DNA of 56,664 nt, counting the filler, from Perkinsus olseni (Eukaryota), in the NCBI GenBank assembly GCA_013115125.1. It is 2 parts of 2 records of this genome, joined end to end, with 100 filler letters (N's around TTAATTAATTAA, not from the genome) between each part and the next. Parts side by side here need not be neighbours in the genome. Positions count along the whole stretch, not along the records: positions 1 to 28,283 come from JABANN010000451.1; positions 28,384 to 56,664 come from JABANN010000452.1. The stretch is one strand, 5' to 3'. The position numbers and the translations under genes were made by a program. How positions within the stretch are numbered: the first letter of the stretch is position 1; the number at the start of each line of letters is the position of its first letter. Of this stretch, positions 8,601 to 55,700 are shown piece after piece. A model generated the notes under the pieces. The model saw only the letters and a list, made by a program, of their open reading frames with translations. It did no database searches and was not told where the DNA came from.

Positions 8601-11600
8601 TGATATTCTTGAAACGGTCAAGCACCTAAGATTCTCCAAATCGATCGATCGATCGATTGGCGCCCCCTACCTCCGTTATCGATTTAGTGGGTTTTGCCAG
8701 CATTGGTTTTACTGGTATCCCGGGAGTAACACTGCATGCCTGAGATAATAACGTACATTATGTCACAATCTTCGACGAGGTGGAAAGAGTCAATCTTTGC
8801 AACCCTCCTGTGTCCAAACGAACGGTAGTAAAACTTATCCTCATCAAAGCTGGTCGGAGACAAGGATGCCACCACAGATGATGTACTTGGCAATTTAGGT
8901 CGGATAAGAAGATAATGTGAAGATCGAAGGATTTTAACCTCGCAAGTGAAGAGATATTTTTACATGAAAACAGGAGTGTAGCAAAACGCCGCATCGGACG
9001 ACGGTATCCTCCAGAAAGAACTTCGCTCCGCCTTTTTTGTTTTCTTCGTCCATCCGCCCCTCTACCCACCTTAGAGAGCTCCGCTGCATCTGCACCCGAC
9101 AGGAGGCAGTCAACAAGCTTATCATAACTTGGCACTTCACAGAACGCCTAAGACGTACAACGAAATCGATAATTTCGTGGCGCGTGACGCTGACGGGTGG
9201 TTGGGTTCACCTGTTTGGTCGCAGCCTCGAGCTCGATCATTTTTAATGCTATCTTATCAGCACTGGGCGCTGGCTTCTCTGACATGTACTGAATCTTGCA
9301 AGCATCAACCTTGGATACTTACCTTTGCGTATATCGGGAATGCATTCCTTCTCTTTACCCTTGGCCGGCTCGGTGAGAACGAATGCGTACGCCAAGGCTT
9401 GAAGAATAGTAGCTGATAGTATCCCAACTCGAAGACGGCCCTGAACGACCACAACGTATCTTACCAGTTTCGACCTAAGATACCCACCTGCAACGTCCTC
9501 ACAATGTACTTCGCCTCCTCCCCCTTGGCTGCCACCAAACACTTCGTTATGATATCTTTTCTCAATTTCTGTGAATCCTACCATCCCATACACAAAAAAT
9601 CTTCGCGGTGCGCGATGACGAAAGATACCTTTCCCCTGGCCTGGCTCATGACGAGTAGTTCCTTATATAATTTACTCAACGTCAGGGGAGGAGGGGCGAA
9701 CAGCATCGGCTGATTCACCCTCGATAGCAACGCAGCCTCGCCAAGGTCCTGATCATCATTTCGTGGCGCGCGAAAAAAAGAAAACAGCAACACCCTCGTG
9801 CGGGATCGAGACCCTGTCTGTAACGATGACTAAACTAGACCGCTACCATGCCTAGACCGCAAGCTTGAATTCTTCCAAAGCCATGCTTGAAATCTCCCCC
9901 TCTTCCTCAAGGTAACCAGCACGAGAAGTCTCGTACTATCGAGGAGTCACTCTTAAAAAGACAAAACTTCTCTAGGAGACTATTCGCTTTTTACTCACAG
10001 TTAGCGAGACAATGTCACAACTGGCTCAAACCAGTAATAACGAAACTACAGCGATACTACCGATACCAAAACCCCTTCCTGGGAGGTCGTAATAATCATC
10101 CTGCATGGACTCATTCCTAGGGCTCAATCCTTTCCCACTACCATAGCGCCCGATGTCGCCCGAACTCACCGCAGCATTGCCGTTACTGATATCAGCCGTG
10201 ATGTGTTTCTCTGATCGACCATACACCTGTGCCATCGCCTTTAGGATTACGTGATCACCAACGCCAACCTGAGTGATGATACTGGTATTATTATTCTGAC
10301 ACCTCTAGCTATTACTTCAACATTCTCATAATCCGGTCTGAGTTTATTAATGAGGAGGTAGACCGCGTGGATGAGTTCTGAAGGGTTGTGGTAGATGATG
10401 GTACGGAAAAGGTTAGCAAGAATAACCTGAAGAAGATCCCTTCGTAGTGGACAGAATAAAAATATCTTAGGTTGAAGCGCGCATCCTGCAGATTATCGAA
10501 GATTCAACAGGCCGTGCACACCCAGGCAGTCAGTCCCCATCTCAGAAATGAAATCGTGTACGACCTCTAAATTCACGAAGACGGCGGAGCGAAGCTTTTT
10601 CACACTTGAAAGAGATATCAAAAGGGGCTTTGCCTGCTAGGTGCAGCCGGCCGATGGAAAGACACCTCCGAGCCGATTGAATTTCGTGGCGCGCGACGCT
10701 CGCTCACCAGAACCTTCTTCTTCGACCCTTGCCCAGAGTTCTTCAAGTCCTCTATTTTCTGCAAGGCCAAAGCGAGTAGGGCGTAGGGGAGGTTCTTGCT
10801 TGGTGTGAGCTGAGAAAAAAAGCGCCCTCGCCGGGATTCGAACCTGCGACCTCTCAACTCACCTTAATCTGACTGAACTTGGAGGGATCGAAAGCCGGTG
10901 AGGTGATGTCACTGATTGCTGTTGGGCTCTTTGCTAAGAAAAAAATAGAGCCTCGCGAGATTTCATTTTTTCGGCAATAATAAACTTTTCTGTTTCTTCC
11001 TCACTTTTCGCTGGTATATCGCGGTTTCCAGGATACTTCGCGTTACCATGTCATTGCAAATCTTCTCAAGAATTACAAAAATATTCCTCAACTTCAAGTT
11101 ACTCTGGGGATTCAAGAGTTGAGCTCAAGTTCGAGTCGACATTAACGTTCTGGAGCGCCAGGCACGTTTGCCAGTGTTTGCCCCGATTCGTAACACCATC
11201 GTTAAGCGTCATCACTACAATCAGCATAGTCAGTGCAAGCGGGAAACTCTCTCAACATTCCTCACCTGCAGCCCCAGAAACCTTCCAGATCGACGAGGGG
11301 CCTGAGAAAGAGTATCAGAGTAAGCTAGCCTCCACAAGCTCACCTGTTCCCTTGGCGATTTGGGCTAACTTCTCTGCATCACTCTTGCCCGGCTGCTTCA
11401 AGGCTTCAGCGAGAGGGATTGCTCTGATGATTACAGAGAAGGATGGTTCGAACCCCCGGCGTGTTCGACAATCCGCGAAAAAAAATTTTCTCCAAAAATA
11501 CGATAACAATCCATAGACGATGAAGGGTTGGAAAATTAACGGAGTGAAGGGAAATAATTATGCATAATTGACACATTGACAGGGGAAATTTTTTTTCGGA

Positions 11601-11968
11601 TTCGGAAAATTGAGAAATCCATTCCACCCTCCTCCGTTACTCGTCATCATCATCCTCATAGTCGTCATCCACTTCCTCATTATCCGAATTTTTCTCTTCA
11701 ACAGGCTGAAATGAAATCGCTCCGGCCAAGCAGGAAAGTTAAACCTTACTTCATCGACTGGTGGCTGCTTATCATCCACTTGGTCATCTTGCATATCTTG
11801 CTTTTCCTCGACCTTCTCGATTTTCCTCTTCTTCTCCACAGGTTCCTCTTCTTTGCCCTTATTGGGCGAATTGGCCGCTCGCTTCGCTCCGCTCATCATC
11901 ATCGAAAATGCATTGACGGCCGAGGACATGTTCTCAGTCGACGAGGATGACGACGACGATGACGACAT
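5677..11968 (-). CDS. LIG1: DNA ligase I (ATP-dependent), multi-exon
   Basis: Basic/acidic N-terminal tail with NLS-like KKRK. Adenylation motif [12 protein letters not shown] is split by an intron. Also [52 protein letters not shown] and [13 protein letters not shown]. Confidence 0.96.
10815..10851 (-). promoter_or_regulatory. orphan Pol III B-box / tRNA-3'-end-like element within a LIG1 intron
   Basis: GGTCGCAGGTTCGAATCCCGGCGAGGGCGC followed by T7. It has an exact GGTTCGAATCC B-box but no A-box or 5' tRNA half. Confidence 0.6.
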
Positions 11969-13165
11969 TCAGAATCAAGTGAGCTAGTCACCGAACAGTG
12001 ATTACCGCAGGGGTTGACAAATCCGTAGCAAAATTTGAAAATATGGTCACCTCACTCCCCTTAGCGGTCCAGGCGTCCGACTGGAAAACGAAATGGTGGA
12101 TAATACCTTTCTCAACGCATCGCTCCGCCTAGTGCCTCCCATTCACGCATCTCCATCACACCGAGAATTTTATCTTGAACAATGAGCATCACAGAATGCG
12201 CTATAAGAGAACGAGCATAATTTTCATCACGAACGACCACCCGAGGATAACGAAGCCAACCCCTGGTCGGAGCTTCCTGTGACCTGTACCCGGCCCTTAA
12301 TAGAAGAGAAGCGCCTTCCCAGCAGGGCAGGAAACACTCCCCTCATTCTCCCTATAGATTACCAACTTAAAGACACCCCAGTGGTATCTAAGTGATAATC
12401 CCATGACTAGCACGCACTTGCCTTAAATGAAACTGAAGAAATACCACACAGTACGGTTATAATAATAGAAGAACATGAATCGCTTCGCTCCGCCCAAATT
12501 ATCTTCTCACAAACTCAACACCAAGCTCACCTACAACAAACCAAACCTTCATCGTACGAGGAATATCGTGGCGCAGCGACATTGAAGTTCATGAGAACGA
12601 ACAGATCTCAAACTAGCCGAAGGAAGATCTTTTCAACAAAGAGACTCCTTTTCGGTCGAACGACGAAGGAAAAATAGCCGACTGAATCTTCCGCAACCGG
12701 CACGCCGGGGCCAGGTCCACAAAATGGTGAATAAGAACACGCACGATGCGAACTGAAGATTGGCTGGGCGAAGTAAATGGCTGGGATGACCTGGACGCTG
12801 ATCTCTTATGAAGTTCAATGTGACGTAACATAGTTAGAGAACAATACTGGACCTAAACCCCCATACAAAACTATAGAAAATACCATAGTTTTTTGGTTTC
12901 TCTGGTACTACAGCGACTCAGACTGTGAGATTTCATGTGGGGGCTACGATTTATTAAGAAACAAAAACACATCAGAATCAAGTAAATACGCGCGCCCTGG
13001 TGAAATTTCTGAATCGGTCAATTTTCCCGCGCTTTCAAGAGATAATTCTCCGCTACTTTATCATGCTCTTCGGCTGTAACTACTTGTACGACTAGTGTAT
13101 GATACCTATGGTCTGGTCATTTACCAATCAATTTACCACAATCATCTACCAGTCATCAGTCCACA

Positions 13166-13291
13166 AATATTTACCACTCCTTTACAGTCAAATTCCTTCA
13201 CGACTAAATTACCAATATTTTTCCACTCCTTTACAGTCAAATTCCTTCACGACTAAATTACCAATATTTTACCACTCCTTTACAGTCAAAT
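13166..13291. repeat. 49-bp tandem repeat, about 2.5 copies
   Basis: CCACTCCTTTACAGTCAAAT recurs at 13174, 13223 and 13272. Confidence 0.9.
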
Positions 13292-13312
13292 AACTTCACT
13301 CTACCATCGATC

Positions 13313-13369
13313 ACCACTACATTACCAATACTTTAGTAGAATTTACTAGAATATTGGTAATGTAGTGGT
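13313..13369. repeat. long inverted repeat / hairpin
   Basis: ACCACTACATTACCAATA (13313-13330) is the exact reverse complement of 13352-13369. The inner 21 nt are also nearly self-complementary. Confidence 0.9.
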
Positions 13370-14467
13370 AGCTACTGTACCTCGTTGTACTAAGTAGAAT
13401 TATTCTAGGCTGCATACTACTACAATCACTTTATCTTCAGCCATCCCCAGAAGACTCATCCACCAAGCCCGCTGGCAGTTGATGGCCTAGAGGGTATCAA
13501 TGACATATTTGCGGGAAGGGTGTGGTACTAGATTGATGTAGAGATGGAGTAGCAGAAGGCATCAGGGAGCACTAGGCCCTGAGAGGTATTACGGTTACCT
13601 CTACAAGAGGCGACAGGCCGATGTCCGATACCACAACAACCGTAACTGCAGCCGAAAGAAACGAAGCCTCACCATGCGGCCCAACCGAAATTCAACCAAA
13701 ATTAGCATCACGACAGCCTTCCCGCTCACGCAGCCACCAAGTACCATCTACCACTAGTGCCGCAGTACTGGTGATGTCCTTAAACCAGTAGCACCTACGA
13801 GCTCGGATACTGACCGAGCCTTACCCGAGCATGATTGGCAAGCACCAGTCAACCCCACTATGCGGTAAAAGGGAGACAACTGTCGTTTGAAGCGCTCTAG
13901 CGTGGGAATGAGCGCGATGGTTACACCGAAGTGTCGTCAGAGGTACCATAGAGTATGGGATGAGAATGCATTCTGGGAAGGAGCGATGAGAGAACACCGA
14001 GGTAACCTCGGTGGTCTCTCATCGCTTCCTCGCCAACCTCGAGGTTGTACGAACCAAGGACTCAAATCAGGCGGGAGATCAGCACGCGTGCACATAAGTG
14101 ACGCCAAGGGCATGGCGGCTGATGCTTCATAAAGGCTTTTCGAGCGATGGACTGGAATGATGTTACTTATAACAGACTGGTGGTTGGTGGGTCTTGATTC
14201 CGACGCCAATGGACGAGGGATGATCTCTGTGAACTCGGGCATCTCCCCAGATTCAGGGCATCACTTTAGTTGCGTTGTCCCTATTTCCGCCGCTGATTGC
14301 ACGCACACGCATAGAGCAGTTTACTCTACCATTAGTTCACTATCATTAGCTATGGGTCTACACAGTTGCACGCATGCGTTCAGACTTCCTGGCCCACTAT
14401 TTGCCCCTTTGTTGCAATCAACGCCGGCTCTTACTGCACCCACCTTAATTGCAGTTGTTTCCTGCGA

Positions 14468-14842
14468 ATGCTTCCCTCAGCCTTCCTCCTCGTCGTCGTC
14501 GCTGTGAGCTGCCTTGCCGTTGTTGGTGGTGAGCAAGAGGTGCGAGGCTTCTACGCCTCCGACCACACCGGGCCTATCAAGTCTTTCGACTTCAATCCCG
14601 ACCGCAGTACGGTCATTCTGTCGCTCGGACCGGACACGGATGAGACCATGGAGGCACCATACACCCAATACAAGGATCTCGTCACAATCTCCCTGAGCAA
14701 CAAGCACCTCGGAACCTTGAAAGAGCTCGCTTCACATAAGGTTGATGATGATACTTTTACAAGGTTATCCGTCGTGTCAAACGTGAACTCTATCATTATT
14801 ACCTATAAGGATGGAGAGGTGACACTTTATAGCGGAAGTTAG
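14468..14842 (+). CDS. small secreted hypothetical protein (124 aa, single exon)
   Basis: ATG 14468, hydrophobic signal peptide MLPSAFLLVVVAVSCLAVVGG, uninterrupted frame with a beta-rich mature region. No family recognised. Confidence 0.75.
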   Translation: MLPSAFLLVVVAVSCLAVVGGEQEVRGFYASDHTGPIKSFDFNPDRSTVILSLGPDTDETMEAPYTQYKDLVTISLSNKHLGTLKELASHKVDDDTFTRLSVVSNVNSIIITYKDGEVTLYSGS

Positions 14843-15947
14843 CTTCAGCCTAGGATACGATGAGTGAAGTGGTTGTTTCCGGGCTTCTGATGATGGGCTA
14901 CTACTACCCCTGTTGTAGTAGAAGGCTTTGCAGTGCAAGCGACCCCACCTGCTACTCATCGTAAGAATACTATTATCGTTTGTTTCCATGTTCGTTTTCG
15001 CTCATCCATTCGGTAACTTGGCTAAGTTTGCGCGTAGTGATGAGAACAAAGTGAATAGTGCCAGTAGAAGGAATATTAAAGTAGAGTATCTTGAGGTCAA
15101 CTTTGTCGCAAACTATAGCACCAATACCTATTCATTCAACAACAGTTCGTTATTGTCAGCTCCCTTGATGTGCTCTGTGTTAAACGAGAGTGGAAGTCTG
15201 GAATCCACTGGGGAATCGATCAGCGTTCGCTTGTTGAAAGAAGAAACCCCTGACGGAGAATCTTCAAGTCGAGCGTAGAGGACGCGAGAAGAAAGATATT
15301 CTCGCCTGAACAACCATGGGAGAATTCTTCGGTCCGCGAATAAACTCACATTCTTGATTGAAGTGATAGAAATTAAATTGAAAAAATGAGTAGGAAGCGG
15401 CGATGATTGTACCCCGTGGTGATTGCACAGAGAAAGCGGTCATTGCGGCCGAGGGTTGCCCATTCCTGACCACAATTATCAAGGTTGTTGTCTACGATTA
15501 GGAGGACTAGCGTGCCTTAGAGTAAGGAAGTTCTCCTCTGTTTGGAACTGATGAACCCAATGAACATACCTAGGAGGGTCGTTACCATTCGGTCATGGTG
15601 AGTTCAGTGCTGTGTCGTCAATGGTAAATTTGCGAAACAGCAGATAAACGTAGTCACCATTGGTGATTACCGATTGCTGGTCGGACTACCGGCTACAATA
15701 TCAGCCGAGCGATGATAAGAAGTGTTTGCTCTGCATCGGATTTAGTAAGACCCTTGAGCCCTTCTTCTCTTCAGTGAAGAAGAAGGCTCTGCTACGAAGG
15801 CTGCCTTGAAGGGAATGACAATTAGGAGCCAGCGACGTGACGGCACTGAAGAGTCGAAATGACAATCTAGTTAGCAAGCTCAGTACTTCTTTTTTACAGA
15901 GGAGACCATCGGTCCAACTCATTTTCGTCGCCTGAAATGAGGGCTCA

Positions 15948-15974
15948 GGTTCGAATCCCAGGGGATGCATTTTT
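15948..15974 (+). promoter_or_regulatory. orphan B-box followed by T5, about 120 bp upstream of the RPS10 start
   Basis: GGTTCGAATCCCAGGGGATGCATTTTT. No cloverleaf 5' half was found. Confidence 0.5.
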
Positions 15975-16071
15975 CCAAAAAATATTTATCGATCACGCTG
16001 CGGGCGAGCTCTATCTTCCTTCGCCTACCCTTCGCAAAGGCCCATACCACCACCTAAGTCTTGCCCTAATT

Positions 16072-16583
16072 ATGGTGCTAATCAGAAAGGAAGATCGCCG
16101 TACTGTCTACGAACATCTCTTCAAGGAGGGTGTCATCGTCGTCGAGAAGAAGCCCACTTTGAAGCACCATCGTCAGATGGAAGTTGCCAACCTTCACGTT
16201 CTCATGATCATGAAGTCTCTTTCTTCCAAGTAGTAGTATCATCATCAGAGACCTCCGTTCAATTATTGTTGTTGTTTAACTCAGGGATCTCGTCGACGAG
16301 AAGTTCAACTGGCAGTGGCACTACTACACCCTCAATGATGATGGCATCGAGTACCTCCGTCAGTACCTCCATCTTCCTGTAATAAGGGTGTCTTGACAAA
16401 TTCGCTGAGAAACGACCTTGTTGTTTTTCTTATCATCAGGCCACCGCTTTTCCCGATACCATGACCAAGCAGCGCCCTACCCGCGCCATTGGTGGTGATG
16501 ACGAGGAGCGCAAGCCCCGTCGTGACTGGGGTGGCAACAAGTGGGGTCAGCAGCAGCAGCAGCAGAAGCCCGTGGAGGCCTAA
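16072..16583 (+). CDS. RPS10: 40S ribosomal protein eS10, 3 exons
   Basis: MVLIRKEDRRTVYEHLFKEGV...NLHVLMIMKSLSSK|DLVDEKFNWQWHYYTLNDDGIEYLRQYLHLP|ATAFPDT. Introns at 16230-16284 and 16379-16439. Confidence 0.96.
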
Positions 16584-17455
16584 GTGGTTCAATATTATTA
16601 AGGGCATCTACGCTTAGGATGATGAGAAAGGCTTTTGGTTGACGCCATTGTATAATATTGTTGAGTTTAGCGATAATTTACACTGGGGAGTGCTCAACGC
16701 AAAGAGAGGCTTTCCGACTGGTGATTCCTTTGGGTCCTGCTGAACACGAAAAGGGGAAGGAGAATATTGACTACTGACACTGCTATGAAAAGGAAAGTAT
16801 CGTATGTTACGAAAGGAGCGGTATGATTAGTCTGTTGCATAAACTCTTTCTCCATAGTTTCCTGCTAATCGACTACTACTACATCTACACACGTTCAACG
16901 TTTGCTGAACAAATTCAGTTTGATAACTTGACTTCCTTCGCCATCTTCAGATGAGAAATAACAAAGGCTTGAATTATGGTAGTACTGCGACGTTGATGTC
17001 GTTGTTAACCTAAAAACAGGTAATACTAACATACACAAGGCGAAAGTCAGCTCACCGTTTTCAACCATCACCAGTTCAATGAGATACTTTACCATCATTG
17101 TAAGGTCTGAGAAGAGACATGCGTTTACCTACACGTATGCCAGTAGAAGTTTTAGAGAAGTACGTCGAGATCGCCCGAGTATCTGTAAAGTCGCACGCCC
17201 ACGATTACGAAACGGCTGACAGCCAGAAGATACTAATTCAATACCGAAGAAACTTTTTGCCCAACTGCCGAAAATTCATGTCCGACAAAGTAGAGTGCTA
17301 AGGCCTGAATGGAACGATTTGTTATCTGTAAGAGGTTTGGGAAGAAACCCTCCAACGATAGCGTTGTATCTCCCTATTATTGCTCAGTATCACCAACGAA
17401 GCTGATGATTACTCTCATAATTCAACGACTACGTTCAGCAATGGATGGCCCTCCA

Positions 17456-18873
17456 TCATCTACCGGTGACAGTCGAAATTCTAATCAGCAGTCCATGCTG
17501 TTGGTGGGTGATTATTATGATGCCACAGATTTGACATTATGTTCTCATTGCGTAACAAGAGTGGCTCTAGTCCTCGCTCGATCGACCAGGTGAGGGCTCA
17601 CCTTCTGGTGGTGTAGAATCTGCGGTCGAGGTCTGTGGCATAGAGATCCAGCATGATCTCGGAGCTCTCTTCGGCTACAGAGAACGCCAAAGATTCTTCA
17701 CTCAAGATACTTCCCAATGAATAATACAAATACGTCTGAGAAGATACGCCTGCGCGAGAATCTTCCGGCTGCGCGAAATGATATTACCAGTTGACGTTGG
17801 ATATCTTGGACGGACGGAGAGGTCTTTAGTATGCACGTTTTGACAGAAGTCCTGGGAAGGAGGCCACGAATGATTCCACTACTAGGGCTTATTATGTCCC
17901 CGGGTTGATTTCCAATGAAGAGCACCTGAGGTCCCCGATTCAAATCCTGGCACTGAGAGGCACTGAATCTTACCTGTGATGATGACCCTTCGCTTCGAGG
18001 CAGCTGGGAGTACTGTACCACTGACTCACTATTCTCACAGCCGAGGCCTCCTTCTGCCTGAAACGACAAGTCCCTTCCCTTCCTGTCCCCAATCATGGCT
18101 CACTTGAGTCCTCTCGCCAAGTGCCGCTTCGGCACGTGAACTACTTGCATTTCGTCCAAGAGAGGCAGTACCCGAGGGAGGTAGAGCGCACAGCTCTCTC
18201 GAACCCAGCCCTAAAGAGTAGCTAGAGGTGTCAGAAAGAGCGGGCAAGAGTGACTACCTCTGTACTGGAACTGAGGACGTAAACGTTGCCCTTGGTGAGG
18301 TGCAGTAGAAGGGTAAGGAAGGCCTCAACGACGGAGGTATACACGTTAGAGAGGGTTAACTAACAAGTACAGTCATTCCGGGGCTGGTCATTGCTCATCG
18401 GGCGGTGGTACGAAGACCGGACTAGGTATTCGAGCGACATGCTATCACTACCACTACAGTGAGTTATATCCGTCAAGGGACGTGGGCGCCTCGAGTGCCG
18501 GTAAATTGATGCCATTGCCCTCTCTTCGTTACATCTCTCCCAACGCGCCTACCGCTACTACCAATACAGTGAGCGCTCATGTCCATCAAACGACGTGAAT
18601 TTATGCCGTTGCTACTACTACTACTTTTCCTCCCTGGTCGATAAGGACCTTGGTGGGGACGATAGTATCATCCCAGTCAAGAATGACCATACACTGCTCC
18701 ACCTCCTGCCTTCTGACGTCGTTGCCGTTGTAGTAGTACTCTTGGGAGTCGCTACTAGTTGGCGTGGAGCAGCAGTAGGAGGAGGAGGCTGCTGTCGGGT
18801 GGCAGCTGTTGGTTGGTGATGAGGTGTCTTTAACCAGAATGGTAGTAGTAGAGGGAGTTATGGTAGAGAACAT
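17456..18873 (-). CDS. HAD-superfamily hydrolase-like protein (DWDDT type), multi-exon
   Basis: Exon peptides ILDWDDTIVPT (HAD motif I), GNVYVLSSSTE|GWVRESCAL and VLFIGNQPGD...VKTCILKTSPSVQDIQRQL. Their order and spacing match the protist DWDDT HAD-like family. The 3' end is uncertain. Confidence 0.7.
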
Positions 18874-21851
18874 CTTCAAAAGTCTTATTACCAAAAGAAG
18901 AAGGATACTACAACTACTCACAATAATATCTTCGACTTATTACGTCGGATGTGTGCTTCAACCTAAGATACTCCACTGCTGACTCGAGATCGGTGAGCGG
19001 GAAATGTGACCCCACCCGGGATCGAACCTGCGACTTGCAGATAGGCGGTGGTAGTCCCAATGAAGTCACTCTTCAGATGGATCTCCGGCAGGTTGCTTCT
19101 AAGCGATATCCGCACGATGGAACCTTCTAACTCGCGCACCTCCGTAGTTAGCCCGTCCACAGTACCTATTCTTGGCCAGTGCTCGGTTTGTCTGTCTGTT
19201 TGCTTGGTTAAGGCCATTGATTAACGTTTCACCTTTGCTTCGTAAAATCTACTGTCAGACCGTCTGACTCAGACGTGTATAATTCCGCCCGGAGATATAT
19301 CCGCTCTCCTGAAAGTCAGACCCGCAGTGTTCCATTTCATGGAAAGGAAACTCGTTTCGCTCCGCTCGCTGCGTCTGCGTGCGATGAGCCCTAGAACTCA
19401 CAATAAGCTTCATAGCTTTCGTCACATCAGCACTTGTTGAGTGCGTAGTCCACCACGAGTCTACCAAGGCTTTCCTACAAACGGAACACTGTAGACTTGC
19501 CCACTCTACTGAGTAACGGTATCGGCTGGCTGATCGACATCTCCGGCCTCCCTTCACCGCTGCCTTCGGTATCTGCTCGTCGACCTGTCCAGCAGTAGTA
19601 CCATCTTTTTCACAACTCATGTCATTTGGTCGGGCTAGCCGCGACACAGTATACATCCCAGATGGGATCTCCGTCAGAACTTGGAAAGTAACCTTCCTCG
19701 CCGTCATTACCATCTATCGTTGAATTCAGGATACCAAAGGGACCAAAGAAGACGGTTCTGAAGGTGAGGGAGGGCTTGGTGAACCTAGCAGGAGTTCTCG
19801 GGACTAGTTCCCACTACTAGTTCTCCAGTCGGGGTACCAGTGGTACCGTACCACCTAGACTGGAGGTCTCACTGGGTTCAGATGCTCCCGTTTTGTTGAC
19901 TCTCAGTAATGCTACCACAGAATGATGTATTGAATATAATAACTACACTGGCTCGAGGGTGCACTGGGGTTGGAACATTGGGAGAATATTGGGCCAACAG
20001 GGATACTAGGGAGAGGGCTGCTGCTTTGCTCTTGCTTAGCACTCGAATTCCGTTTGGAGTGGTATCGTTCCATCTGCGCTTGATCCTGATAAAAAAGGCT
20101 TTTTATGCGGTTTTTCGGTTGGTCAATTTCCGGAGAATGTTACTCATAATGAACGACCAATGCCAAACTCGCACCCAAATTTTTATCAGTTGCATGCATC
20201 AACATAAGATACGCCATTCCAGGCTCTCGCAAAGCGTCCTTGCCGAAGTACCAACCCCCTGAGAAGACTTTTAGACGGACGAGTCATGTCGAGCGAATGT
20301 ATCACGAGCCCCTCCGACTATCGAAGGATACCATCGAACTGAGTGATACACTCTCGGAAAAGTAGTACTCGTCGGTCGGAACGTGGATGGGTGCCATCAC
20401 CTGTTAGATTTTAATGTTTCGGATATCTTGTTGGCCACTTGGGGTTGGTCTCTTTTCTGATGGAAATCTTCCCTTACTTTGATGGTTAGTTTACTTATTT
20501 ATCTGCCAGGCACGCTACCCCCGGTGAAGGGGAGAGCAGCAGCAGGAAAATACGGTCTTGTTATTCAAGACAGGTTGGTAGTCTCTCAATGCTGCTTGTG
20601 AGGATGAGCGTTTGGTAGGATGATGGTTCGGTGGCATCTAAGGGCAAGATAGGTGGTGAAGGCAGCTCGTTGTTGGACGAGGACATGGCAAGGGAAGCTA
20701 GAACACAAGCTAGGAAGGTAGAAGCGGTGATCCAGAGGGGTTACAGAATGACATTCTTGCGTAGACTAGGGGCTGTAGTGTAAGATGGATCGTAGATGCT
20801 CTTCAACTGGATTGGGGAAAAGTGCCCACGAGACTGGCCGCCCATTTTAATGCCGCAATATCCCGATAGACAGGTTTTTCTCACGGGAGCAGCTCGATTG
20901 CGTGTGATGATTCTTCTTTCGGTTTAATTTTTTACCTGCGCTAGGGTATCGAAATTTTAAACTGATTACCATCATCTGAAGGTTTGGGACGTTTCCAGTG
21001 TCGTTACCCTAGCGAGGTGTTTGGGCCGAAGACTCGACGTTCATGGGCATGCACGTCTGTGGTCGCTATAGCTTTCGGCTGTTCCGGTTTCGGGATACCT
21101 TCTCACGAAACTCCGCTACCAATAAATCATAAAATTCGGCGTTTTCTTTAATAAAAGAGTACCGGTAATCAGCGAGCGGCTACTCTCTCCGTTAACGCTG
21201 TCATGTCGCTGATCAGTGTTCCCTCCTGAGGAGTGGATCGATTGTAATCTTGATATCAGGGTTATGCTTTTGCCAAGCAAGCCAACATGCTGGGCACGGT
21301 AGGAGAGGTGGCCTTTGGAGTTCTTCGTGCCAACGCCGAGGATGACGTCATGGGAGCATGACTGAGTGTCGATCGAACTCTGCATCTTGCGTTGAGGGGG
21401 AAGAAGACACACGGAGACGGCCATATTCTGACAGGAGGAAATTCGACGCTCAGCGAGTGAACCTTCCCTTTGTTGCTCTGATTGTGTTATTGTCCGTCGG
21501 GAGGCTCTCGCAGATCGTCCCAAGCTGCCTTGCCTCCCACTGGGGCATCCGATATGATAGGGTCTCGCGGATTTGGACGCTTTGTTCATGAACATGGAAA
21601 TATGACCGCTCGAAGATCGATCTTGCACGATTTCGAGCGCTCGAAAGTCCTTTCCGATTGGCGATTTCCTCCGTGCGCAATTTGATGTGGTAGCATAAAA
21701 TTGGTGGACTGCCAGCTGCTTGACACAGTGCTGTGGTGAGAGGGTGGTAGTCGCGAGAATGCCAATTCTACTTCGAGTAGTTATTTTCTTAGTCGGGAAA
21801 CTCGAGTAAAGGCAGGAGTCCTGTCTCAGTAACGTCGCAGTCATCGCTGTC

Positions 21852-22547
21852 ATGCTTCTCACTGTTCACACGCTCACATCATCAATTCTGTTGATCCTGC
21901 TGAACACGGACGTGGTGACGGGTGCCTTCCTCAGGGGAGGGCATCACCCCGCCCTGCTACCCTTCATGATGATGATGATGCCTCCCCTCCGAGGTGGGAT
22001 GGGCAGTTCGGTCGTGTGCTCAGGAGTCCTCTCAGGAACGCTTGTATGAAGATGGACGTGAAATCATTCTGAGCTACGACAACCCGTGGCTGACGAGCTG
22101 CCATATTCTTTACAACACGACCGAACCCTCGTACGAAGTGACTCTGAAGGAGGAGTGGATGACAGACGGGCACCCCGAGGATAATTACCTGGCTATTGGA
22201 ACGAAGCTCACTACGGATCCGATTCGGGACGCCTGATTGATTTGATATACTTGTAAAAGCGCTCAGGTGGTGGCTTTGTAGTCCATCATTGTTTCAGCTC
22301 GTATAAGTCTGGCAAGTTCGAGGTTTTGGTCGGACCAGTGGATGAGTTAGGGCACTACAAGTCTTATAGTGGAGAAGAAGAAGAAGCGCTCCACCGACAG
22401 CTGGGTGATGTGAACCCTTTCTATCATTTATTGAAGGATATAAAGAAAAACTTCAAGATAAGGAATGCAAGAAGATCGCTGAGTACATTGAAGGCCACCC
22501 AGCTGACGAGTATGAAGAGGGGAAGGAGTGGTTGCCTAAGTTTATGA
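21852..22547 (+). CDS. hypothetical protein with N-terminal signal peptide, probably 3 exons
   Basis: Hydrophobic start MLLTVHTLTSSILLILLNTD is followed by coding-like frames at about 22024-22200 and 22268-22547. Exact junctions were not resolved. Confidence 0.5.
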
Positions 22548-23474
22548 TGGAGAAAACGATCAGGGCCACAGAATGAACTCCTCATGTCGATCCACCTTGT
22601 TGTTGTTGATGTAATCATGTTTATCCGAAGTATGGGTGTTGTGGTTAGTATGATGTCCAATGGTTATGTTTGTGTCACTCCTGCGGTCCAGGGCTATTAG
22701 CGAATCCTCATGCCTGTCAGGAGGAGGAGAGCGGCGGCGGTGGCGGGTTGGTGGTCTCGTTATATATCAGAGTCAGGATTTAGGATGGATGAATAGTGAT
22801 AGAGTACAATGATGCTGCTGCCAGGGGAATATGTAAAACTGTAGCAACGGCCAAGGGACAGTTGAGGTTCATCGGAGTTGGCTTCGGCTTACGACTAGAT
22901 AGCTGAAAGATCAGGATGAGTCACCGCTGGAGGCTGCGCATCCTCTGGAGGAGTGGTGGTAGTAGTAGCGGCAGCATCAACATGCTCTCTTAAAAGTACT
23001 GCTGTGGAACTAGTGTTTGGTCTCTGCCTCCCCAGTCTGATGTCAGGTCGCACTACGTGGTAGTAGTCGTACGTTGATGAAGTATCGTGAGTAGAGGAGG
23101 ATGGAATGAAGGGAACTTCTTGGCCTCATCGGTCGGGTTATACGGTAGATTCTACCGGGTAGAAGCGAAACTACCCATCCCGTAACTTTCTCACGCCTGA
23201 TCGCGGGATGTTACCAAGGTGTTGATAAACGACGCCCGTCATGATGGAGAGCGGCGAGCCACGGGGGTGCTGCTGCGGGTTGGTTGAGATCATGACGGCT
23301 CTCGGAGAATAGAAACCGTACTGTGCGATGTATGGTATTTATTAACAGGGTCAACCTCTCTCCACGGTAGCTGCCACGAACGTATCAAAGACTGAGTGTT
23401 GATCGAATTCTTCATCTTGCGTTGAGGGGGATGGGTGGTATCGCGTTGGGTAGGTCCAGGGGATTTAGTCCAGC

Positions 23475-27376
<3,902 letters not shown>

Positions 27377-28283: not shown

Positions 28284-28383
28284 NNNNNNNNNNNNNNNNN
28301 NNNNNNNNNNNNNNNNNNNNNNNNNNNTTAATTAATTAANNNNNNNNNNNNNNNNNNNNNNNNNNNNNNNNNNNNNNNNNNNN
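28284..28383. other. assembly gap with artificial six-frame-stop linker
   Basis: 44 N + TTAATTAATTAA (28328-28339) + 44 N = exactly 100 nt. Contiguity across it is not established. Confidence 0.97.
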
Positions 28384-28542
28384 GACTGGTGTGTTGTATC
28401 AATTCTAACCGTCTTCCATCTGGGATGACTGGTGTGTTGTATCAATTCTAACCGTCATCTACTGAAGATGACTGGTGTGTTGTATCAATTCTAACCGTCT
28501 TCCATCTGGGATGGCTGGTGTGTTGTATCAATTCTAACCGTC
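28384..28542. repeat. 43-bp tandem repeat (30-bp constant + 13-bp variable part), at least 4 units, truncated by the gap
   Basis: GACTGGTGTGTTGTATCAATTCTAACCGTC starts at 28384, 28427, 28470 and 28513 (one mismatch in the last). The separators are TTCCATCTGGGAT, ATCTACTGAAGAT and TTCCATCTGGGAT. Confidence 0.92.
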
Positions 28543-28772
28543 AATGCTATAAAGAAGTTTATCATGAGTTTCAGTTCATGCAACCCAGCGATGGTTACGT
28601 GAGTTGAATAGTGGTTAATTAAACCCGAATTAAGGGAAGAATAATATTGGGAGGGTGGGGGATTGAGGGCGTTTGTTTGATATAAAATAATTAGTGTGTT
28701 AGTTACAGTGCGACTGTCAGTCACAACATACTAAGGCTTCTCAGATACTAGTTTCTGTTGACAATCTATTCA

Positions 28773-35568: not shown

Positions 35569-35670
35569 CGGGAAGGAACAACAAGAACTGTAGTTATGCC
35601 GCTCTCTCTTCGTGAGCTTCACAATCGGAAGCTGTTACTATCTCATCGAGAGGTTCCTCTCTTCATTACT

Positions 35671-38307: not shown

Positions 38308-39879
38308 ATGAGCAGGTTACTCACTCCTTGCAGGCAAACACTCCGGGCGGCGGCGAGGACGGCGAAAAAGACGATCGAATTGTTGCAGCAGCAGCAGAGC
38401 CGCGTCGCGACTCGTTAAGTAACAGTAAGTCAAGTTTGATAGGAATTAGAGGACAGTGGAAGCGGTCGTGGAAGTGCTCTCGTCAAGCTTCCTCTTCTTA
38501 GCTTCGCTCAGCTCTCTGACAACACATAGCCCGCCCGATAGAGATGACGGAGGGAAGCCCATTGGCCTACTTCTCAGTAGCCGCTATGTCCTTCTTCAGA
38601 GACTGTACAAGGACCTTGGCATCCTCGAACCTGAAGCAGTGATGGCTGCTGACGGATGGCGGCCGGCGCTCGGAGTCCCTACTGCTTTTTCAAAGCCACT
38701 AGCTTCTGTTTACAGGAATTCCTCCGCGAGACCAAGCGAGCCAGCTTCTTAGTCAGGACCCTACACACAAGTAAGCGTGGCGTCCGCGTTGAATGGACTG
38801 AATCGCTCGACCCCCTACTCTATCTCGTTTGGCTCCTCCCTCACAGGGGCCAGTATCTGAGCCAATCAGTCGCCAGAGGCGGATACCGCAGGAAGACCTA
38901 CGCATCTGAAGGTGGCGTCGCCGTTGAACTCAGCCCCTGCTCCCGCAGGATCACAGCGGACCTTCCAGTTACTATGCCGAAGGAAGAGCTCAGGATGGCC
39001 GACGGGGCTGATCACGTCTGAGGGGTCGTATCACCAGCGGGGACGGGTTAGGTCGACTCACATGTGTCTTGGCACTCGGAAGACCACACTCTCTCCCTCA
39101 ACAAGAACTTCGAGGCTGCAGAGGCCAACTGACCCTCGTCCGTAGTGACCCAGACGCTGCCTTCCGATGGCTCGCATGCCACGAAGGAACCTGCAGGGAC
39201 GAGGAAGCTCTGGGGACACGGTCGTCGCCGGCGGCTTAGTCAGCCTCATGTGCTGGCAACGCGCGTCGGTAGTGGCAACGCAGAGACCTTCGTTACGGTA
39301 ACGATGAGTTCAGTGATGCGTTATTGAGTACGCCCGAACCCTGCCACGACTAGCAGAAGGGAAAGACCGGACGATCTTATTCCCTCCACGAGCAGAGCGT
39401 ATCAAGAAAGCCTCGGGATACTCCACCTGGCTGGTCAACTCGCTCGAGCATAACCAAGCAAGTAGTGCCGTTTGGTACTCTAGCTGGGGTCGCAACGGCC
39501 AACGACGACGAGGAGGCATCCAGCTCGTCTGAGAAGGGCACCTCGCAGGGAGGCCATCACTCACTAGGAGTTCCAAGGCTTACGAATGTACAGGTTCCAC
39601 TGCGTCCCCCTCTTCCTCAGCACGATATCGCCTCGGTCATTCACGCGCCACGAGGACCTGGATGCGCTCTTTGAGAGCAACCACAACACTCGAGTAGCCC
39701 TACCCGATCTCGTTGGTGCATTCAATAGTGTACGGGCCATCACGCAGGCCGAAGTCCTCTCCAACTTGACCAAGGAGGCCAGCCTCCAGCCTCTCGCGAC
39801 GCCGTTTGTTCGACGAGCTGCGCTGGGCAGATTCAGACGACCGGGAGCCGCGAGAGGAAACCGAGCGACGACTGGCTGA
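38308..39879 (+). CDS. hypothetical multi-exon protein with mitochondrial-presequence-like N-terminus
   Basis: Arg/Ala/Thr-rich, acid-free start MSRLLTPCRQTLRAAARTAKK. Frame-compatible GT-AG junctions include QDPTHK|GQYLSQ. The terminal frame ends at 39879. Confidence 0.5.
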
Positions 39880-42112: not shown

Positions 42113-45112
<3,000 letters not shown>

Positions 45113-45195
45113 TCTAAGCTGGACGAGGCTGAGAAGGTAGGGCTGTTATCGCTAACGCAATCGTCGCGCGCCCAGAAACTAGGAGCAGAAACAGG

Positions 45196-48046: not shown

Positions 48047-49692
48047 TCAGCGGTAGAGACTCTTTTTTATCCATAGAGCACCGGGCCTTCCATTGCCATC
48101 CACCCCTACGAGTATTTGACTCACGATGTAAGGAGCGGTCATGGACAGCCGATGTAGGATGGACTGAAAGAATGAGGTGGCCATGATGAACAATAAGCTA
48201 CTGCGCCCGCCGGGAGTCGAACCCGGGTCACAAGCATGGGAAGCTTGTATGATACCGTTACACTACGAGCGCCGTTGAGATTACAATGCCTCTAACTACC
48301 AAATGCTGGACGAAATCTATTCCTATGACACCACAATAACAATGCCAACCAACTTTACAAAGACTGCGCCCGCCGGGAGTCGAACCCGGGTCACAAGCAT
48401 GGGAAGCTTATATGATACCGTTACACTACGAGCGCTGCTGAACTAATCGTATTTCAACTCGCCCCATGGTGGGAGAGAGGCAGCGGATACGCACCTCCTT
48501 GACGGCTTCAAATAGCACTCCTCCTTTACGTTGATGGCCTTCAGGTACGTGAGTTCCCACGCCAGTCACCACCCAGACCGAAAGGCATGGATGCCGCCAA
48601 AGCGCGAAGTCCAGGGCCTGACATTTCGGAAATGGGAGTCTCGCTGACTACGCTGATTGGCGCAACATTTACCACTGCGTGGTACTACACATCGCTATTC
48701 GAGCGCAACCGATGGAGACCATTGGTCCATCGAAAGGACATTCCAGACTGAGACGTAGCGACCTCAGACTAGTCATCGAGGCGAACCGATACATCGAAGG
48801 AGAAGCGCGTTGAGCTTTTCCGTAGGTGAAACAACAGCCGGAGAGTTTTCTCCCTAATATCGACGGACTCGGGAGCGCGCGCCTTCTCACGCGTTTCAGC
48901 GTCTGCATGCTGAGGAATTCGCCATCTCAGTCGGCTCTCATGGAACCTCAAGTTGGCTTGAGGTTCAGATTTTTTGATAACCGAGGTCTAGCGAGAGGTA
49001 GTTGGATCCTCGCGTGCCTGGTGAGCCATGGGCGTCCAGTCACGGGGGAACCGACCACCTTGCAGTCGCCGCCGGCCACAGGTCCGGAGAACAAGTGTTG
49101 CATGAAAATGCGGTACCAACGGCCCTCACGCCGTTGTCAGGAACGGCGTAACTTTTTCAACCGATACTACAAAGTCTAGAGCCTCCTCAACGCTCTTCAG
49201 TGATTGGAAGTGCAAGTCGATAACAATATCCCCTTCTTGTCCCAACGGCAGTGGTCTGTCCGCGTTAACGTACTTGAACCTCTCTACCTGACCAACAATC
49301 CACACCGTTCGTCCCTTCTCCCCACCATTCATTTATCAGCGCGTCTATTCTACACATACTCGAGACTGGAAAGCGTGGGCCCAAATGAGCGAAGACGCTC
49401 GAAGAACAGTGACAGGCCACCTTTCTCACCGGGTCCTGTATCGAGAACGCCGCATCAGCCGCTCCATCCTCGTGGTTCCTCCACACCCCGTCCGGAATCT
49501 TAACGGTGTCCAACTGAACCTCCACCCAATTGCCCTCCCCTGGAGCATGGTGAGAGGCATATGTCGGCCCATTAGCATACACCTAAACAAGCAACAGGGA
49601 TAACCTCAACCATCGTCCGTAGCTGCGGCCTAGGCAGCCAAGAGCTGCGAGGCTCCACCGCCCTACCGTCTTTCCTGGACCACCGCCTTCCC

Positions 49693-49724
<32 letters not shown>

Positions 49725-50693: not shown

Positions 50694-50973
50694 CAGACAG
50701 GAAGGATAAAAACTGCAGAAATCCAGCAAAAAGGCAACCCCATCGGTCGACGGTTCACGAGAGATTTCCCGCCAAATCCGCATACATCACCATCGCGGGA
50801 GGGGTAATTACCAATGCTAACGCCATCCGCCACTCTAGCTCGGCTTGGTGTGAACAGCCGGCACTAGCATCTGTGGGATAACATTGGTACCACACGCTCG
50901 AGTTTTCACATGGCATCGCAGTCTTTTCAGATCAGAGTGAGCGCCCAACGCAACTTGTCGATGCCTGGGAAGC

Positions 50974-51995
50974 TCAAAAGCAATCATGCGAAGGACATCG
51001 CTTGCTATGATGCTCCCATGGTCTTAACATGGCTAGACATGTAGGGTCACCGACCACTCGAGATCGATGAATAGACTCTCCCAGCTCCTTCCAATAGTCA
51101 CGATGGACGTCCGACATGTAGGCCTTCACTGAACAAGACCAGCAGTGTAACGAGAGCCCTGCAGCTGGGCTCTCAAAAGGATTCTCGAATTTTCTACCGT
51201 AAGTATGCAGATGAAAAACAGTATGAAGGGAGACAGGCGGAACACCCACGAGAAGGAAAGAGCAACAACACATTCCTGCTAAGAGCAACGCGCAAGATAC
51301 AAGTATGCCAAGACAGGATTCGAAACAAACGGTCTGCTACGGGTGGAGCCTTGACGCAGTGGAGTGCGACGGGGCTACATGGGAGACCAGTCATAACTGA
51401 AACGCTAAAACCGCAGTAGGCAACGGGAGATTCACAGATTGCTGTTACATACCGGAGGGCCTATCAGGCGCTCGACTCGAATTTCGACGAACTCCCACTA
51501 CTACAAGAGCCAGCCTACTCTCATTACCAGCTCTCAAGTCAGCACCATGTAACAGCAGCTTAGCCTTCGCTCCGCTCCGCATAGCAGTAGAAAGGTCATA
51601 CAACGTATTGGGCAGACCTGCCGAGGAAAGGCTTCCCCACCTACTGCGTTCCTCCCACTTGTTGAAGAGTTATCCCAACCGAAAAGAGGAAAGGCAATCA
51701 CGGCTGCTGTTCCAAAGTAATAAATTGGACCAACACTATGCGAGAATCGTCCAATATTTGCAGTTCCTGCAGCCACATGATGTGGCCCACATCATAGATC
51801 CGACCTTGACGGCCAGGCCGACTCAACCAGGCTGGGAGAACCAGCCCGGTTGTGCCCTTCCCAACCCCCTATATTACTAGCCCTGTGTTTCCACGAGTAC
51901 TGCCGCCACGCACGAGTGCCTTGATCAGCATCTTGGATCTTATACCTGTTCAACCGACCAATCCTCGTTGCAGGTAAAACATCTCCATCCGCCAT
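50974..51995 (-). CDS. possible small multi-exon hypothetical (membrane) protein
   Basis: Coding-like pieces MADGDVLPATRIGRLNRYKIQD..., hydrophobic PIYYFGTAAVIAFPLFG and terminal AYMSDVHRDYWKELGESIHR. Junctions were not resolved. Confidence 0.4.
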
Positions 51996-52794: not shown

Positions 52795-55700
52795 CTATAT
52801 TTGCTGGTTAACTCTAAAATCAGTAGATACCTTCTTAGCAGCGCCTCCAACGCCGACCCTCTGAGTGTTCGCGACGTAACGATGACCCAGCTCATAATCA
52901 TCCGGAATCATCCAGAAGAAATTTCTAACCATAGTCGCCGCTTTCCGCACCTGTCTGCCCACGCCAGATCGACCCGACAAATCACTCGACCGTTCCGCAG
53001 CAACAGGGGAATCATCGAACGCTTCCAAATCAGAATCCTCAGAATCCAAATCGATCGATCTCCGCCTCTCTCGCTCCACCGCCAGTCGTGATGCCGCATT
53101 TCGTCTTTTGCGTTCCTGCCTTCGGAAAATTTTCAATATCACCCCACTTCCAATGACAAAGACCGTCAAATGCAGCGGAACAAAAGCCAGAACCAAAGAG
53201 GCCAGGAAGCACGTCGGGACGGCCATTATGTAGGCTAGCCTAGTGACCAAAGGATCGCTCCAATTCCACGCCGTCGGTATCCTTTCTATCACATTCAACG
53301 CTCTGTGAACTTTAATGTTGATCTTAGTAAGCATGACCAGCATTCGTCTCAGCCTCACATCAGCGTTCTCCTTAGCGTCTACGTCCGACTCCCAAACCAC
53401 ATAAGCGTCCCTCTGCCGAAACTCCCAATCCCTGGCTGACATCATCCCATTTACCGTCAATAATATCAACATAATCCACGGCCACAACGCCCTAGGAGAC
53501 AGCAGACACGTGTAGGCCCAAATGATCATCAACATCGCCAAGGGCCCGTGAGCAGAGAAAAAGTAGCTCAGCAGCGGGGCCATGCTCTTCAACCGTCTTA
53601 TCCGCATTTTGTTCCGCTTGAGAAGAAATCGGAAATTTCTCAGCAGCGCCCACAGTGCCATATCGCCTTGGACTTCACTCAGCCGCGGAATGACGTACAT
53701 AGTGGACGGGTTGGCCTCGAACTCATATTCAGCACGGAGTATTTGCTCCTGGCTGGTGACAGACGACTTATCCCCTTCATCGCTCATCTCCGAAGCGGAA
53801 AGTGACTTCTCCTGAAAAAACGAGATTCCATCGCCGAAGGCCGGAGAGCCAGCAACTCATCGGAAAGACGAATGTGATCCTTTCAAATCAGATCGAATAC
53901 CGCAGCCGTTACTACATCATCCTCACTGCCCAGTGACATCGCTCTTGTAGGCCCCACCTGCCACCAAGGCCGAGACCGCAGCATCGCCGCCCATGCGGAC
54001 TCGTCAAGTCGAAGACCGAGCTGAATTCAATCCATCAGTCAAGAAGACTCGGGACATCCGGACTACCTCGAGACAAATGAATCCAATGGACTTCACTGGT
54101 TTGACCATTCCCGAGCCGGGCCATTTGGGGACAGCGGTTAAGTATCTTGAAAATTGATACCTCCTCAAGCGGAGCGAAGCACGCCTGCTCTCCTACTCAC
54201 GACTATTACTTGCTAAAAGGATTATAGTCCGACCATCCCTCATCTATTTCGCGCTCGCCCGCTGTTTTTGGGCGGAAGCATCCAGTAAAGATTCCGCCAC
54301 CACTGCGCTCCTCTTTACGGGAAATATTGTGTCCAATCCTCATCTTCCTTGCACTGGTAGTAGTGGCAGCTGTGGGATCCCGTTCGAGGAGTCTTGATAC
54401 AAAATACACATCGAAACTTTCAATTCGCTAACGCCGCTCGACAGAATTTCCGCCATCACCCAGTAGGAATTCCACGGCATATCACCCCAATCGTACTTCT
54501 TGCATGAGTAATACTCCTGTGTTTCCTTGCAACCTGCCTTCTGTTCAATCTTCGTCGTGATGGGATATACCTCGAACCAGCTTCGCTCCGGCGGCCTCGG
54601 ATGTCCCGACCACGAATCCTCAATAAGAGTTGGCAATGGTATCTGAACTCCAGTGTCACAACAGCTTGAGCCACCTCACATGCACGTGAGAGTCGAAGGA
54701 AGTTGAGATTCGCCATAGGCTGATGGTTGGCTATAGGATGACAGAAGCGAGATATAACCGCGGAGGCCAAGCTAAGGACCAACGCCCTTAGTGCCTTGCC
54801 GAGATCATTTGCCTACTATCAATATGATCTCTGAGTACACTGTATCTTCTTCATTACAAGCATCAACTCAGGGAGATATTCGAGCGTTAGAGAATCAACT
54901 ATTCTCACCAAGTACCAGCGACAGCAATTAACTTATGATTTTCCCACCATCTGCCTAATGTTCAGACCATGGTTTTCTCTGTACGATATCTTTCAAGAAA
55001 ATGGCCACCTGGCCGAGATACCGGGCTCAGGTGTTTCACTTTCTCATTCTGGTTCAGGCGTGGCCGGCCGGACAGCAACCGGATGTCATAGAGACCTTCC
55101 TGATCCGCGACTGATACCATTGAGCATCAACCGTCATGGGAAAGTTTCGATACCACTTTCCCAACGAATCGCGCTGCGCGATTCGCGCAGCGAACAGACC
55201 GAAACACCTTGCCTCCCTCATTACAATGACTCGCCCCAAGGGCTGAGGCGTCCGAAACTGATGAGAGGCGAAGAGCACCACATGGAGGTCGCTGGCTAAA
55301 TCGGTAACCTCCAGACTCCAGCGGGCATCCTCCCATTCCACAGCTGAAAGGAAGACGAAATAAATCGAGGGAATGCAACGTGCAACGACATGCGCGGCCA
55401 CTACGCCGAGTGGCAGAACCCTTCATGTGGCATAGTGGCCTCACTTCCTTGTGAAACTTGGACCACCGTGAAAGCAGCGCCAGGAAGGACACGAGACAGC
55501 ATTCTACTGTATTTAGAAGTATTGCTCGAGTGCTCCTCAAGCGACGTGGCAAATGAGTCACTTCTTCGCATTGAGGTGAACACTTAGAGACCACCGACAG
55601 AATTTTCATCGCTAAGACGCCAAGCACTTTTCCCAGGGAGAAGGGCTCGTCTCGCAATATACAGACAGGCCTACTACTACTATGAGCACCCACTTACTTC

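Follow-up and report, generated by a model that had tools for sequence, protein, structure and literature searches.

What is a 12-base word doing in exact and near-exact copies across the introns and upstream regions of a perkinsid locus? To our knowledge, almost nothing is known of the cis-acting DNA and RNA signals of perkinsids and dinoflagellates, in which mRNA 5' ends are trans-spliced and promoters are undefined. We analyzed one 57-kb stretch of DNA from the mollusc parasite Perkinsus olseni (assembly GCA_013115125.1; 56,664 bases, hereafter the window), and all results refer to it. A reading from sequence alone (the sequence-only reading) had proposed that a dispersed word in about ten copies is the binding site of an abundant regulatory or chromatin-organizing factor. 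The word, GCGGAGCGAAGC (word 1), is strongly over-represented and sharply bounded. Our tentative reading, to which we give a probability of about 0.4, is that selection maintains word 1 as the recognition site of some abundant, sequence-specific factor, which would more likely act on DNA than on pre-mRNA.

Word 1 has six exact matches in the window against 0.02 expected, and 13 matches at no more than one mismatch against 0.31 expected. Expectations were taken from 100 dinucleotide-preserving shuffles, none of which reached either observed count, so the claim that ten near-exact copies are not random holds. Divided by mismatch class, there are 6, 7, and 12 matches at zero, one, and two mismatches, where the shuffles predict 0.02, 0.27, and 4.6; at three mismatches the count is back at background (55 versus 46 expected). 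Two of the 13 matches overlap, leaving 12 separate places at a density of about one per 5 kb. All ten places named by the sequence-only reading hold word 1 or a one-mismatch form, but two further one-mismatch copies, at 12117 and 38501 on the minus strand, had been missed. In an unbiased k-mer census over k = 8-12, word 1 is the top non-simple word at each length. Positions 11750-13203 are also spanned, with zero differences, by a contig of an independent public run, and the three copies within it are therefore not peculiar to this assembly.

These counts bear directly on the most trivial account of the word, a compositional or slippage artefact, arising either by chance from base composition or as a short (RAGCG)n microsatellite. 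Word 1 can indeed be read as GAGCG-GAGCG-AAGCG, and variants in unit number exist, with one more at 51564 and one fewer at 11715. However, the shuffles never attain the observed counts and the independent contig confirms three copies. An artefact is effectively refuted by the shuffle counts, and we give it almost no credence. The microsatellite was also rejected as a candidate in its own right: the same imperfect 12-mer recurs exactly, and just two copies reach three full RAGCG units.

The edges of the word are sharp. Across the 12 core columns, information stands at 1.61 bits per column; it drops to 0.06 in the 5' flank and 0.01 in the 3' flank, and most copies have mutually unrelated flanks. 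Outside the core, the notable features are a purine just before it and a loose G/T-A-T-rich tail, which makes an earlier remark that several copies abut A/T runs weakly true, although no column of the tail exceeds 0.4 bits. One-mismatch copies depart from the word at positions 1, 3, and 9-12, while the central GAGCG (positions 4-8) is invariant in 13 of 13 matches. An excess limited to zero to two mismatches, together with sharp bounds, indicates that word 1 is not a decayed longer repeat, which would fade by degrees. Nor is it, for the most part, the core of a longer repeat; the exception is a set of three copies, 12482, 27201, and 44698, which share 26-30 nt at 87-88% identity. Sharp edges, a near-invariant centre, and exact copies amid unrelated sequence are characteristic of a selectively maintained site. 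As expected of a DNA site, word 1 is over-represented and its information is confined to a short core.

Because the last seven bases of word 1 are GCGAAGC, it could also be a single-strand structural element, a mini-hairpin acting in unwound DNA, for example in replication or pausing. A 2026 review describes GCGNAGC sequences as forming extraordinarily stable mini-hairpin DNA (PMC13037366). Yet the five bases that precede the heptamer are as conserved as the hairpin bases themselves, and we consider this explanation very improbable. The heptamer as the selected unit was tried and rejected, since by itself it shows no enrichment: GCGAAGC occurs 14 times versus 8.3 expected, with eight of the 14 inside word 1 and six elsewhere.

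To place the copies relative to genes, we relied on exact mapping of the genome's own proteins and on RNA contigs. At two acceptors, the RNA contigs end in the final bases of the spliced leader, a 22-mer that two papers show ending in CTTGGCTCAAG (PMC3101222, PMC9399869). Trans-splicing therefore creates the mRNA 5' ends here, and whatever lies 5' of an acceptor is outron, removed in the manner of an intron. The 12 places of word 1 comprise five in introns (three sense and two antisense), two in coding exons, and five upstream or unassigned (Table 1). The description of the word as mostly non-coding is thus borne out at 10 of 12 places, and the copy at 54580, left unlabelled in the sequence-only reading, turns out to lie in a coding exon. 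It could be a chance match, as about 0.3 one-mismatch matches are expected by chance. The SGAKR peptide assigned earlier to the copy in LIG1 exon 1 agrees with the exact protein mapping. Gene labels were likewise right in substance: LIG1 and AFG2 mapped exactly, the "cysteine synthase" is a match to PALP, and "MCTP" is a C2-domain gene. Five copies lie within 3.5 kb in the 5' half of LIG1 (P = 0.033 under random placement). Introns with word 1 at one mismatch or fewer number four of the 47 examined, and word offsets from the 5' splice site range from about 12 to 112 nt.

Orientation bears on whether word 1 would act on DNA or on RNA. Ten copies have an assigned transcript; eight of these are sense and two antisense (P = 0.11). 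The exact intronic copies are evenly divided, with 10584 and 54169 antisense and 27201 and 44698 sense, and this mixed orientation argues against a purely RNA-level signal. Word 1 might still be a pre-mRNA element, whose purine-rich sense form would be the target, in introns and outrons, of an RNA-binding protein (a splicing enhancer factor, for instance), and which would help define very short or weak introns. The sense lean fits this idea, as do the three sense intronic copies, none of which is more than about 40 nt from the 5' splice site and which are placed alike in both 53-nt introns. Copy 12482 sits inside a good donor...acceptor unit, and a donor and acceptor are both present around 3 of 12 copies versus 3% of random positions. 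However, two of the six exact copies are antisense in introns, beyond chance (0.02 expected), so that a strict sense orientation is not seen, and most introns lack the word (4 of 47 carry it at one mismatch or fewer, as noted above). Only 4 of 12 copies have an above-threshold donor in the 45 nt upstream, versus 17% of random positions. No consistent RNA fold was found around the copies (z-scores from -1.4 to +2.3, with a different pairing each time), and the companion words described below are clearly orientation-free. Weighing both sides, we regard a pre-mRNA element as unlikely. The stricter proposition that word 1 always lies behind a donor site was rejected on the donor figures just given.

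Word 1 does not stand alone; it is the commonest in a vocabulary of at least four short intron words. Among 47 introns (6,691 nt), 34 distinct 12-mers are common between introns versus 2.2 in shuffles (maximum 8), while 39 exons (4,665 nt) have no 12-mers in common. About 15 words of 11-29 nt are common to introns, at no fixed offset and in either orientation. Word 2 has five matches in the window at two mismatches or fewer, all within LIG1 and AFG2 introns, with stretches of identity up to 21 nt; its full copies are all on the window plus strand, which means both orientations relative to transcription of the two genes. Contigs from RNA runs break or jump at word 2 (loose ends at 9191, 9758, and 9777, and a joint from 9190 to 26384), which suggests many further copies elsewhere in the genome. 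Word 3 has eight matches at two mismatches or fewer, three of them in LIG1 or AFG2 introns. Several begin 6-9 nt past a donor GT, as in introns 9279-9322 and 9441-9487 and also near 37069. One is found 40 nt before the 18915 spliced-leader acceptor, and some others are antisense. Two of the three copies of word 4 are in 47-nt introns, in opposite orientations, and one of the three is in a LIG1 intron. Words 2, 3, and 4 all take either orientation within very short introns. When LIG1 and AFG2 are counted together, words 1-4 give 12 intronic copies versus 1 exonic (5523 versus 4665 nt, P = 0.004). An all-against-all alignment of 30 short introns, trimmed of splice consensus, returned common blocks of 12-28 nt, and six pairs scored at least 24 versus 0.07 expected; no full-length similarity was found among these 30 introns. 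On visual comparison, word 3 looks like the 3' half of the spliced leader given in PMC3101222.

This vocabulary is what gives weight to the main rival of a recognition site, a neutral micro-repeat, in which modules of about 12-30 nt are copied into non-coding DNA in either orientation without any function of their own. The copying could have run through a miniature mobile or introner-like element, or through templated filler synthesis where breaks are repaired. Sharing of 12-mers among introns and none among exons is what such copying would leave, as are the variable offsets of the 15 or so words and the blocks of 16-28 nt common in either orientation. The same is true of the extended likeness of copies 12482, 27201, and 44698, of the near-equal offsets in the two 53-nt introns, and of the variants with one RAGCG unit more or fewer. 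Invasive intronic elements are moreover described in relatives of Perkinsus (PMC7789003). There is, however, no known mobility mechanism for a unit of 12-13 bp, and most copies have nothing in common beyond those 12-13 bp. With about one mismatch in 12 in the core and flanks at the random level, copying would need either constraint or a very recent transfer of the core only. In addition, full-length intron families are missing among the 30 short introns, and one copy lies within conserved coding sequence. We see neutral copying as a serious possibility, but a doubtful one.

As for the DNA-level recognition site, exact copies lie both sense and antisense and the companion words are orientation-free, which points to recognition of DNA rather than RNA. 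Word 1, with its preceding purine and loose G/T-A-T-rich tail, would then be a short site kept intact by selection in non-coding DNA. A putative abundant sequence-specific protein would bind it on DNA, in transcription or in chromatin, and word 1 would be one of a few such sites making up a vocabulary of introns and upstream regions. Here we infer protein binding, action on DNA, and function from the over-representation, bounds, placement, and orientations observed. Also in favor of this reading, the exon copy at 11881 encodes SGAKR with exactly the bases of word 1. We class word 1 as an over-represented short cis-word with a putative function. The earlier proposal of a factor binding site survives in part. 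It agrees with sharp bounds of 12-13 bp, an excess at zero to two mismatches, both orientations, and a mostly non-coding placement, but it had overlooked several intron-borne words, which leave room for a neutral copy-paste origin. The 8:2 sense lean leaves room for a role in pre-mRNA as well.

Several points weigh against a recognition site on DNA. Words of 11-29 nt, a whole vocabulary of them, exceed typical factor sites in length and uniformity, and copy-paste would account for them equally well. The 8:2 sense lean is not predicted for a DNA site. The 26-30 nt common to copies 12482, 27201, and 44698 mean that some copies are related by descent, and not by convergent selection alone. All the evidence comes from a single window. 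Lastly, because mRNA 5' ends are trans-spliced, transcription starts are hidden, and the position of copies relative to promoters cannot be judged.

General regulatory and insulator-type factors are abundant DNA-binding proteins with dispersed recognition sites. Like their sites, word 1 is short, sharply bounded, over-represented, mostly non-coding, and present in both orientations; it also clusters near a gene 5' half, and coding sequence occasionally tolerates it. Unlike them, many copies are deep in introns and not at promoters, and word 1 is joined by other words with edges just as sharp, some of which, at 17-21 nt, exceed most such sites in length. A second comparison is offered by nematode 21U-RNAs, in which an upstream motif belongs to autonomous small-RNA mini-genes scattered through introns. 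Word 1 resembles that motif in being short, dense in introns and intergenic DNA, on both strands, and followed by an A/T-rich stretch, but it has no fixed conserved downstream feature (at most 0.4 bits per column).

Introners, the invasive intronic elements of Micromonas, Aureococcus, and Amoebophrya, are a third comparison. According to PMC7789003, they are repeated over the length of the intron, inverted repeats of 8-20 nt join the intron ends, and direct repeats lie at the boundaries. Words 1-4 are like introners in that sequence is repeated among spliceosomal introns, in the wider alveolate group that includes Perkinsus. They are also alike in the two 53-nt introns that hold word 1 at nearly the same offset and in the three copies with extended identity. 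They are unlike introners in that the similar stretches are internal and short (12-28 nt), vary in offset, and may face either way. Copies outside introns and the canonical GT..AG ends of the introns are further differences. On the two defining features examined, membership among introners was rejected: the 30 aligned short introns showed no similarity over most of their length, and element ends do not coincide with intron ends, given the spread of offsets and the copies in exons and upstream regions. We also rejected a miniature inverted-repeat transposable element with word 1 as its terminal inverted repeat. The sole close convergent pair, 54169 (plus) and 54580 (minus), is separated by 411 nt and brackets no non-coding insert but a coding exon that is also conserved in P. 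chesapeaki.

A wider proposition is that Perkinsus non-coding DNA, above all introns of 42-60 nt and outrons, carries a code of sharply bounded words of 12-21 bp, with word 1 the commonest, and that several sequence-specific factors would read it. We think this improbable on present evidence, but if it were true, the words would be gene-internal regulatory or chromatin-marking sites in perkinsids and dinoflagellates. Should the window be typical, about one copy per 5 kb would amount to thousands of word 1 sites genome-wide. Word 1 and its companions would offer a handle on the factors that read Perkinsus non-coding DNA, or on the gain and exchange of sequence in short introns. Even as a neutral micro-repeat, word 1 would inform on the turnover of intron sequence in the Perkinsus lineage.

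We also looked for word 1 outside the window and in existing catalogues. A full-text literature search, with supplements outside its scope, gave no account of word 1 or of Perkinsus intron words. Rfam and tRNA scans had no match at any copy. None of four core hexamers appears in the main text of an AP2 motif paper (PMC4117751), and a by-eye comparison with the spliced-leader RNA probe and primer sequences in PMC3101222 found no likeness to word 1. In an exact 16-mer scan of metagenome contigs, which is uninformative on Perkinsus itself, at least 120 stretches matched; none of the 120 loci examined carried words 3 or 4, and 12-mers like word 2 were single one-mismatch matches in 9 loci. Inspection of 8 of the 17 metagenome loci with at least two word 1 matches found unrelated repeats or chance, several of prokaryote type and none perkinsid-looking. 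A search of metagenome contigs with the AFG2 N-terminal exon found no related locus.

Table 1. Word 1, its companion words, and the genes and acceptors used to place them
Feature	Position	Strand	Context
Word 1, one mismatch (last base T)	9020..9031	-	Sense, LIG1 intron 13 (8740-9069, 330 nt), about 37 nt past the 5' splice site; intron supported by RNA contigs of four runs and exact protein mapping
Word 1, exact	10584..10595	+	Antisense, middle of LIG1 intron 6 (10427-10707, 281 nt), which also carries words 2 and 3
Shortened word 1 form, CCGGAGCGATT, one RAGCG unit less	11715..11725	-	Sense, 44-nt LIG1 intron 1 (11706-11749)
Word 1, exact	11881..11892	-	Sense, LIG1 exon 1, coding, residues 26-30 SGAKR; GGAKR in the P. 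chesapeaki orthologue
Word 1, one mismatch	12117..12128	-	LIG1 strand, 149 nt 5' of the start codon; either untranslated region or outron
Word 1, exact	12482..12493	-	LIG1 strand, 514 nt 5' of the start codon; donor...acceptor unit of about 98 nt; local RNA cover about 0
Word 1, one mismatch	19354..19365	-	Same strand as a minus-strand gene, about 440 nt 5' of acceptor 18915; taken as non-coding (frame open, but without Pfam match and with scant RNA cover)
Word 1, exact	27201..27212	+	Sense, last intron of AFG2/SPATA5 (27188-27240, 53 nt); begins 13 nt into the intron, ends 28 nt short of the 3' splice site
Word 1, one mismatch (GCTG...)	38501..38512	-	About 330 nt 5' of a predicted minus-strand DHH-like gene start; placed with a weak gene model of our own
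Word 1, exact	44698..44709	-	Sense, PALP-family gene intron (44669-44721, 53 nt) near the gene 5' end; begins 12 nt into the intron, ends 29 nt short of the 3' splice site
Word 1, two overlapping one-mismatch matches (51564 and 51569, both minus), one place	51564..51580	-	Extra GAGCG unit, GCGGAGCGGAGCGAAGG; unassigned, weak placement
Word 1, exact	54169..54180	+	Antisense, minus-strand C2-domain gene, 5 nt before the 3' splice site of an intron of about 329 nt
Word 1, one mismatch (CCGG...)	54580..54591	-	Sense, coding exon of the C2-domain gene
Word 2, AATTTCGTGGCGCGYGA, 17-mer	9171-9187, 9757-9773, 10680-10696, 25419-25435, 26385-26401	+	
Word 2, partial copy	near 39641	-	
Word 3, ATCTTAGGTTGAAGC, 15-mer	9302, 9467, 10464, 18955, 25223, 36542, 37069, 43035 and others		
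Word 4, AGCTAGAGGTGTCAGAA, 17-mer	10294-10311, 18219-18236, 44866-44888		Three copies
LIG1 (DNA ligase I)	5680-11968	-	806 residues, 26 exons, GT..AG introns, residue-for-residue mapping
AFG2/SPATA5 homologue	23475-27373	+	749 residues, 13 exons, GT..AG introns, residue-for-residue mapping
C2-domain gene ("MCTP")	exons between 52804 and 56261	-	tblastn of a P. chesapeaki C2-domain protein
Trans-splice acceptor, AFG2	23452	+	RNA contig end with last spliced-leader bases
Trans-splice acceptor, gene at 16713-18915	18915	-	RNA contig end with last spliced-leader bases

The gene assignments behind the table differ in their support. The LIG1 protein has three DNA-ligase Pfam domains (PF04675, PF01068, and PF04679) and is for that reason a DNA ligase I; the name "tRNA ligase" that it bears in one source is probably wrong. 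For AFG2, a P. olseni protein is 97% identical to the conserved AAA exon at 24696-25310, with weaker matches from P. chesapeaki and P. marinus. In the PALP-family (cysteine synthase-like) gene, the exon after the intron at 44669-44721 matches Pfam PALP positions 22-70 (E = 4.9e-13), and the frame upstream of that intron gives the GNTPL-type start of the domain. Segments of the C2-domain gene are 45-87% identical to the P. chesapeaki protein, with 84% over a large exon. At least 15 introns are confirmed by RNA contigs from three RNA-like runs (15 of 44 joints listed); introns outside LIG1 and AFG2 are mostly without RNA confirmation. The 47 established introns are canonical GT..AG and bimodal in length, 30 of them 42-89 nt and 17 of them 165-495 nt. 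The three RNA-like runs have a depth of about 0 upstream of 12284 and again from 19588 to 22907, which is no more than a hint that mature mRNA lacks both stretches. Our own exon-chaining gene finder, relied on for the placement of copy 38501 alone, recovered 12 of the 15 RNA-confirmed introns; its models are partial because codon bias is weak.

Other elements in the window were recorded alongside. A 42-nt direct repeat (21360-21401 and 23390-23431, 93% identity), whose second copy ends about 20 nt before the AFG2 spliced-leader acceptor, may be an acceptor-proximal element. Fragments like a tRNA T-arm plus acceptor (B-box-like) occur in short introns in both orientations, at 10833-10853 (LIG1 intron 5), 15939-15959, and 17926-17973; the B-box consensus is not enriched in the window (21 versus 16.9 expected at two mismatches or fewer). 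Three near-perfect palindromes are non-coding: 446-494 (49 nt), 13313-13369 (57 nt), and 13982-14026 (45 nt). The one at 13313 has a microRNA-family match below threshold (35.7 bits versus 80). A tandem array at 28284-28560, with a 43-bp period, includes two runs of 44 N (28284-28327 and 28340-28383), and the window may join contigs there. An open frame of 1092 residues on the minus strand (32359-35634), without a Pfam match, is rich in proline and glutamate and looks repetitive. Finally, two tandem tRNA-Gly(CCC) genes lie on the minus strand at 48202-48272 and 48365-48435, 163 nt apart and 96% identical over 79 nt.

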